A stretch of DNA of 64,000 nucleotides from Giardia intestinalis. Its lineage: Eukaryota. Positions within the stretch are counted from its first letter, which is position 1; every line of letters starts with the position of its first letter. The notes beneath the pieces are model-generated. The model did no database searches. It was not told the origin of the DNA and was given only the letters and a program-made list of their open reading frames with translations. Where the stretch lies: NCBI GenBank assembly GCA_000002435.2, contig CM018793.1. One strand, written 5' to 3'. This document shows positions 49,600 through 49,929 of this stretch, one piece after another. The translations under genes and the position numbers were made by a program.

Positions 49600-49929
49600 A
49601 TGGCCGACAATGGCAATAACGCATTCAGTCTTTCTGCAGTGACTCCCACCATCCCACCGTTCACCTTTAAGGAGCTCCACGAGCGGCTGAATGGCGTGCT
49701 AGGAAGAGATGCCACAGGTGTAGTCTACTCCCTCGAAGGTTATCCGAGTCTCGCCGTGAAGGAGATCTTGCTTGAAGGCTTGGATAGGAGCAGTGTGGAT
49801 GCTCTTAGACACACTATGCTCCAGATAAGCTACCCTTAGGCTGTGAATGCCATCGTGACAGATAGCTGTGTCCCAGTCTACCCAGGCGACACAGTGCAAT
49901 ATACGGGTAAACAAGTCACTCACTGGTGA
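49600..49929 (+). pseudogene. NEK-kinase N-terminal fragment with in-frame premature stop (decayed paralog)
   Basis: ATG verified with a good AT-rich initiator (ttgaaaataaactgtcATG). LGRDATGVVYSLEGYPSLAVKEILLEGL aligns with the Gly-loop/beta3 region of both NEK genes in the window (LGKGSCGAVYSLKSSPTDVVKEIQLDG; LGVGAFGKVYKV...ALKEI). A TAG at 49837 replaces the expected residue in the YPQ context. Homology then continues in the same frame (AIVTDSCV vs YIVNCTRV) to a second stop at 49927. Confidence 0.65.

Follow-up and report, generated by a model that had tools for sequence, protein, structure and literature searches.

A probable truncated duplicate of a Nek-GL4 kinase gene at the edge of a VSP-HCMP-VSP block in Giardia intestinalis

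The window that we analyzed is a stretch of 64,000 nucleotides from contig CM018793.1 of the Giardia intestinalis assembly GCA_000002435.2. On its plus strand, an open reading frame (ORF) at 49600..49839 begins with an ATG at 49600, encodes 79 amino acids and closes with a TAG at 49837-49839, the second in-frame stop being a TGA at 49927-49929. By exact-sequence look-up, the product is XP_001707621.1 / KAE8305809.1 of Giardia intestinalis WB, annotated as "Protein kinase". The ORF thus has an entry in the annotation already, and it belongs to a sort of element that has been described before. It starts 517 nt downstream of a VSP copy that forms one arm of an inverted repeat (46988..49098 versus 40147..38037; 2111 bp, 99.76% identical), which bears out the association with a VSP duplication noted in an earlier, preliminary description of this DNA. 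On its other side lies the convergent NEK gene GL50803_5142, whose stop codon is only 296 nt away from the TAG. The ORF of this neighbor spans 50136..53117 on the minus strand, includes Pfam Pkinase and ankyrin repeat matches, and is followed by a poly(A)-signal-like TGTAAAT at 50109..50115. In Table S1 of Manning et al., 2011 (PMC3218828), GL50803_5142 appears as a Nek-GL4 and as "Dead Nek - missing D166". The coordinates of these features are included in Table 1.

Table 1. Features of the locus, in window coordinates.
Feature	Coordinates	Strand	Remarks
Arm 1, intact 708-aa VSP	38037..40179	-	KAE8305807.1; repeat arm 38037..40147
HCMP, EGF-like, between the VSP arms	41415..46478	-	KAE8305808.1, 1687 aa, exact match
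Arm 2, VSP copy	46988..49098	+	Without ATG or signal peptide; CRGKA end at 49082
VSP-NEK spacer with NEK promoter, putatively co-duplicated	49083..49599	+	AT-rich TTATTTTTGAAAATAAACTGTC directly before the ATG
NEK-derived 5' coding segment	49600..49803	+	Codons 1-68; Gly-loop, beta1-beta3, start of alphaC region
Rearrangement breakpoint, right-hand edge of the putative duplicated block	49803..49804	.	Abrupt loss of parent similarity
Non-homologous ORF tail	49804..49839	+	Codons 69-79, LRHTMLQISYP after A68, plus TAG
Native 3' flank of convergent GL50803_5142	49804..50135	.	Lacks coding and RNA-family signals; contiguous with GL50803_5142 at 98% identity in L010
Convergent NEK GL50803_5142	50136..53099	-	987 aa, KAE8305810.1, exact match

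Two further observations concern the surroundings of the ORF. The G+C content, followed over 46850..50600, falls steeply, with the fall starting near 49803, from 60-70% in the VSP and the spacer to ~36-42% where GL50803_5142 has its 3' end; and no Rfam match at E<=1 was found in 48900..50300.

The two VSP arms differ in their state of preservation. The gene of arm 1 carries the signal peptide MLLIALHLVTSILA. The ORF of arm 2, at 46926..49082, matches the Pfam VSP family (3e-43), and its similarity to the arm-1 VSP begins at 46988, that is, around codon 12 of arm 1. An upstream in-frame ATG was looked for in arm 2 and not found, and there is no protein accession between KAE8305808 and KAE8305809. 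The arm-2 VSP is thus probably an unannotated, 5'-truncated pseudogene. Two models that lie between two copies of an 865-aa NEK gene, to which we now turn, match the HCMP encoded between the arms: KAE8305957.1 at 95.6% identity and KAE8305956.1 at 87.5%.

The preliminary description had proposed that the short ORF encodes the Gly-loop and beta3 region of a NEK kinase, and this we could confirm. The ORF includes the NEK N-lobe peptide LGRDATGVVYSLEGYPSLAVKEI, and its residues 8-68 score 55.5 bits (E 2e-19) against a custom NEK HMM trained on 69 NEK kinase domains from Giardia, the match being limited to model positions 3-63. The neighboring GL50803_5142 was also detected by BLASTP, with 33% identity over 54 aa (E 3e-7). 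A complete bilobal PF00069 domain (~250 aa, at the Pfam gathering score) is absent, and hmmscan found no Pfam family at E<=1 for either the 79-aa ORF or its 109-aa read-through. Of the kinase motifs, only the Gly-loop region and LAVKE, with the beta3 Lys, are present; the HRDLRPAN and ADFG motifs of the parent gene fall past the truncation point at codon 68 and are missing from the ORF. Its kinase-domain sequence places the ORF within Giardia Nek-GL4, an assignment that holds for the 68 retained codons only, and neither ankyrin repeats nor a coiled coil, as in the Nek-GL4 architecture, follow the fragment, the 332 nt up to the next gene being without NEK similarity. A product that lacks everything from alphaC onward, including HRD, DFG, the C-lobe and the ankyrin repeats, would have no kinase function and could not serve as a scaffold with a kinase fold either.

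The origin of these 68 codons could be traced. XP_001707621.1 clusters at 90% identity with the 865-aa "Kinase, NEK" proteins KAE8305955.1 and KAE8305959.1, which are two identical copies of GL50803_103944 (P0003, hereafter NEK865) from WB, encoded on the same 4,018,654-bp contig as the window. Residues 1-67 of the ORF are identical to the N-terminus of NEK865 at all 67 positions. GL50803_103944 is listed, in the same Table S1, as a catalytically active Nek-GL4 with 14 ankyrin repeats (Manning et al., 2011; PMC3218828). GL50803_5142 is only 36% identical to NEK865 and is not the parent of the fragment; the third NEK of the window, a 1213-aa ORF at 13709..17350 on the minus strand, is only ~31% identical to NEK865. 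We deduced the architecture of the parent locus in WB from protein clusters and accession order, which gives the succession NEK865 - HCMP - ... - NEK865, and from contig AHGT01000153.1 (L007) of DH, an assemblage A2 isolate. In L007, a VSP is followed, 517 nt later, by an intact 865-aa NEK, and the DNA of its first 68 codons (L007 2645..2848) is identical to that of the ORF at 201 of 204 positions (98.5%).

The similarity to the DH locus extends well beyond coding sequence. Positions 1214..2848 of L007 are collinear with 48168..49803 of the window at 94.3% identity, after which the match ends; this alignment covers the 3' part of the VSP (95.8%), the entire VSP-NEK spacer (89.8%) and codons 1-68 of the NEK gene. 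In the pairwise alignment, almost every base agrees as far as ...GTGGATGCT, and agreement falls to random level directly after it; the blastn / tblastn matches to the parent end at 49803/49809. In agreement with this, the tblastn search for remaining NEK homology that had been suggested beforehand, run with the 865-aa NEK against the window, returned 49600..49809 and nothing else nearby. Thus, the locus has two attributes of a truncated, non-processed duplicate, namely, parental similarity that includes non-coding flanks, here those of the DH VSP-NEK865 locus, and an abrupt and real breakpoint, here at 49803/49804. Since the TAG lies 12 codons past the end of the NEK-derived DNA, there is no nonsense mutation in kinase sequence; rather, the TAG is the first stop met once the frame leaves NEK-derived DNA for the unrelated flank. 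Nor is the notion of a decayed gene borne out, given the near-identity of the 68 codons to both the DH and the WB parents. With the arm-2 VSP and the NEK gene both truncated, cut genes are found at both ends of 46988..49803.

The junction at 49803/49804 is real, as it is spanned by seven independent contigs. Six of them (L001-L006) are Logan contigs assembled from different sequencing runs; all carry the 79-aa ORF unchanged and match the window without a difference over 49523..50504, breakpoint included. They differ only upstream, within 49340..49522, where they often carry the allele of the DH parent (DH-like variants in L001-L004). This suggests that the tract from ~49523 to 49803 is identical in the fragment and in the parent copies, and that the assembler switches copy there; such an identical tract also hints at gene conversion. 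The higher conservation of the NEK segment than of the adjacent spacer, when compared with the DH parent, could likewise be due to gene conversion, or to some constraint, and not to neutral drift. The seventh contig, L010, belongs to an isolate that differs from WB and from DH by ~1.5% each. Its sequence is collinear with 63099..49771 of the window, takes in GL50803_5142 with its flank and crosses the same junction, to stop after 33 nt of NEK-derived sequence. Sharing of the junction by this isolate implies that it is older than ~1.5% sequence divergence. Within the ORF tail, L010 has a non-synonymous change, 49816 A>G, which turns Met73 into Val.

At the syntenic DH locus, the situation is different. 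Contig AHGT01000026.1 (L009) is without arm 2, the spacer, the fragment, the flank and the 3' two-thirds of GL50803_5142, which is cut to 295 aa at window position 52240 and followed by ~297 nt of unique sequence. When compared with 35955..63110 of the window, L009 has a single VSP, and its HCMP segment, 82.8% identical, is inverted with respect to the conserved flanks. We read this arrangement as the probable outcome of an inversion and a deletion, both derived, in the lineage of DH. A 289-aa version resembling the truncated GL50803_5142 of L009 is present in several Logan/ENA assemblies (P0129-P0133). The comparison with syntenic regions of other isolates, which had been recommended as a way to find the intact ancestor, showed the fragment to be missing from the DH locus in L009; an intact NEK865 is present in DH on L007.

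GL50803_5142 itself varies in length. Its ankyrin region includes a 57-bp direct repeat, 87.7% identical, at 50465..50521 and 50807..50863, and L010 is without the 342 nt between the two copies, encoding 873 aa versus 987 aa. This difference suggests repeat-mediated variation in ankyrin copy number, or else assembly collapse. All six Logan contigs end in this repeat region.

The sequence upstream of the ORF has been retained, as anticipated from its AT-rich initiator. The A+T content of the 30 nt preceding the ATG is 70%, within the top 4% of random 30-mers taken window-wide and typical of the real genes of the window, 19 of which have a mean of 61% by the same measure; and the 100 nt upstream of the ATG are ~94-95% identical to the promoter of the intact DH gene, with the last ~60 identical. 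Copying of the entire 517-nt spacer together with the start of the gene accounts for the intact promoter, whose retention is, hence, no evidence of selection. After the TAG, only poly(A)-like motifs with one mismatch occur, TGTGAAT at 49842 and GGTAAAC at 49906, and the promoter would be expected to give, at most, a short and probably unstable transcript or peptide.

With these data at hand, the ways in which such an ORF could have arisen can be weighed. The preliminary description favored decay in situ, whereby a once full-length NEK suffered a CAG to TAG nonsense mutation exactly where paralogs have YPQ, and the degraded kinase sequence continued downstream for ~30 codons. There is, indeed, a superficial likeness between ISYP-stop-AVNAIVTDSCV and IYPQLQSRYIVNCTRV of the NEK at 13709..17350(-), and the BLASTP match to GL50803_5142 reaches the residue after the stop. 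However, both YPQ and YIVNCTRV, the motifs on which the proposal was based, come from that distant NEK, which reads ...GELDIYPQLQSRYIVNCTRVLR, whereas the true parent reads TIKLELAALFTLFHPGVIKY at the position of the tail, and similarity to it is lost at codon 68. The tail peptides of the ORF (ALRHTMLQISYP) contribute next to nothing to the kinase match, as extending the HMM alignment past residue 68 adds only 1.5 bits. In a Smith-Waterman test, the tail (codons 68-109) was given a Q in place of the stop, the setting most favorable to the proposal, and scored 23, 21 and 20 against the NEK at 13709..17350(-), GL50803_5142 and NEK865, respectively. All three scores lie below the means of 2000 shuffles (24.7, 24.2 and 23.8), 1378 to 1797 of which scored at least as high as the tail. 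The six frames of 49804..50135 gave no positive score against the custom NEK HMM, and the 296 nt that separate the TAG from the stop of GL50803_5142 could not accommodate the >2 kb that the body of a decayed NEK would take up. The likenesses to YPQ and YIVNCTRV are chance resemblances. What the preliminary description had named as evidence against its own reading, homology within the first 80 codons and none after the stop, is what we found, with homology limited to 68 codons. We consider decay in situ very unlikely. Two other accounts deserve hardly any credence. One of them supposes that the ORF is the 5' exon of a split gene, joined by cis- or trans-splicing to a NEK body devoid of its first ~70 codons. 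Trans-splicing is known in Giardia, from the Hsp90 and dynein heavy-chain genes, and the NEK models P0060, P0062, P0050 and P0006 do begin at parent residues 66-73; but there is no GTATGT-type 5' splice site at or near 49803, P0060 shares no more than 76% identity with the parent, and in contig L008, the one such locus whose DNA was read, the N-terminal codons are present upstream, with the frame broken by a 2-nt deletion, as in an ordinary frameshift pseudogene. The other supposes a chimeric join, in the reference assembly, of the NEK865 and GL50803_5142 loci. The region is repeat-rich, and "maybe an assembly error" was raised for a similar fragment, GL50803_90244 (Manning et al., 2011; PMC3218828), but an artefact is at odds with six contigs that are identical across the junction and with the same junction in an isolate diverged by ~1.5%.

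A bona fide small gene, encoding a functional 79-aa N-lobe decoy or giving rise to a promoter-driven RNA antisense to GL50803_5142, is unlikely as well, although somewhat more can be said for it. The ORF and its promoter are intact, and the annotation lists its product as a protein; the junction is kept in the ~1.5% diverged isolate, so that the fragment is of some age; the coding part is more conserved than the spacer; and, with only degenerate poly(A)-like signals after the TAG, transcriptional read-through is conceivable. Against this, the syntenic DH locus is entirely without the fragment, the product comprises only beta1-beta3, with no Pfam match even at a permissive threshold, its last 11 residues come from non-coding flank, one of them is altered in L010 by the Met73 to Val change, and a recent origin, or gene conversion with the parent, would account equally well for the high conservation of the 204 nt. 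A related speculation, which we regard as slightly less likely still, is that the NEK865 promoter fires through the 296-nt gap to yield antisense or double-stranded RNA that modulates the "dead" GL50803_5142. As a separate part of this speculation, ongoing gene conversion may keep the stump equal to the parent, which would make it a recombination partner within the variable VSP/HCMP/NEK block.

We therefore favor, with a probability of about 0.85 for the two parts taken jointly, the reading in which the fragment derives its 68 codons from the start of a Nek-GL4 gene paralogous to GL50803_103944, and the ORF is a truncated, non-processed duplicate pseudogene, made of a promoter and those 68 codons, at a segmental-duplication or deletion breakpoint. 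Under this reading, VSP, HCMP, VSP, spacer and the first 68 NEK codons would have been copied as a block (~38037..49803), whose right end would fall inside the NEK gene, either because the duplication ended there or because a later deletion removed the remainder. The frame would then enter the unrelated 3' flank of GL50803_5142 and meet a chance stop after 11 further codons. The best explanation of the block as a whole appears to be paralogy with the locus that has the two intact NEK865 copies. Of the preliminary description, a probably non-functional NEK fragment with an intact promoter, the identity and the link to the VSP duplication hold, but the mechanism does not, being truncation and not decay by point mutation; the birth-and-death turnover of NEK genes that it invoked is well illustrated by a truncated Nek-GL4 duplicate.

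The label of XP_001707621.1 / KAE8305809.1 should, accordingly, be that of a truncated Nek-GL4 pseudogene fragment, which has little import beyond curation. More broadly, the locus provides a clean, datable case in which segmental duplications carried VSP, HCMP and NEK genes along jointly and were bounded within adjacent genes, cutting these, and in which the structure of the block varies among assemblage A isolates, namely, WB, DH and a third lineage. It agrees with, and changes neither of, the accounts of Manning et al. (2011) and Adam et al. (2010); to these accounts, the present analysis adds which gene is the parent, where precisely the breakpoint lies and how the fragment is connected with the VSP-HCMP-VSP block.

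In the Giardia kinome, GL4 Neks are known for "rampant gene duplication and pseudogenization", 29 of the 30 kinase pseudogenes of WB being GL4, and five GL4 pairs being >98% identical (Manning et al., 2011, Genome Biol 12:R66; PMC3218828). The tail peptide of our ORF has no match in the available part of Table S1 of that study, where, however, the closest counterpart of the fragment is found: GL50803_90244, "Dead Nek (Fragment)", with the comment "Fragment, cannot extend with genomic" (PMC3218828). Like our ORF, it is a short ORF holding only the start of a GL4 NEK, with an MADxxxH/N...LGRDATxxVYSL N-terminus, and it is not extendable in the genome. It differs in being reported there as 68% identical to its closest Neks, whereas the window fragment has an active parent with which it agrees almost completely, and in the point of truncation, since its similarity reaches ~codon 74-80 and that of the window fragment codon 68. 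The metagenome-derived ENA contig k141_73681 (L011 8001..8249) holds another stump of the kind of GL50803_90244, in which 82 aa of NEK follow a 1620-aa protein and a 546-aa NEK; its DNA is 73-76% identical to NEK865 and the window fragment and its similarity ends a few codons later. As this stump has no adjacent VSP, NEK stumps arise in more than one context. The NEK pseudogene of the ENA metagenome YACH19-1 scaffold_261 (L008 9850..10060) has a 5' part like another GL4 NEK and is nearly identical to NEK865 from ~codon 72, beginning with the same MLKRGL as WB P0060. Its 2-nt deletion comes directly after GATGCT, the same spot as the window breakpoint, which may be a coincidence or may mark a fragile or recombinogenic site. 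A recurrent breakpoint hotspot at codons 68-72, where several NEK models begin and L008 has its lesion, was considered and found unsupported, L008 being a frameshift with its N-terminus present and GL50803_90244-type similarity running to ~codon 74-80.

Inverted vsp pairs whose flanks diverge abruptly have, similarly, been described from WB before (Adam et al., 2010, BMC Genomics 11:424; PMC2996952). The window shares with them near-identical VSPs in inverted orientation, here head-to-head, and flanks that are similar and then diverge abruptly. It departs from them in that its arms are 6.8 kb apart and enclose an HCMP gene, in contrast to the 2.2-3.8 kb of non-coding DNA of the described pairs, and in that one VSP arm is without a start codon. 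Moreover, arm 2 diverges from arm 1 16 nt past the stop codon, whereas its similarity to the DH VSP-NEK865 locus reaches 721 nt past the stop, into the NEK gene. Finally, the fragment resembles the truncated duplicates found at the edges of segmental duplications in other eukaryotes, in which promoter and 5' exon are shared with a functional parent and the stop is fortuitous. Nothing substantive sets it apart from these, other than its host being a protist with an intron-poor and very compact genome, in which the stump is still called a gene.
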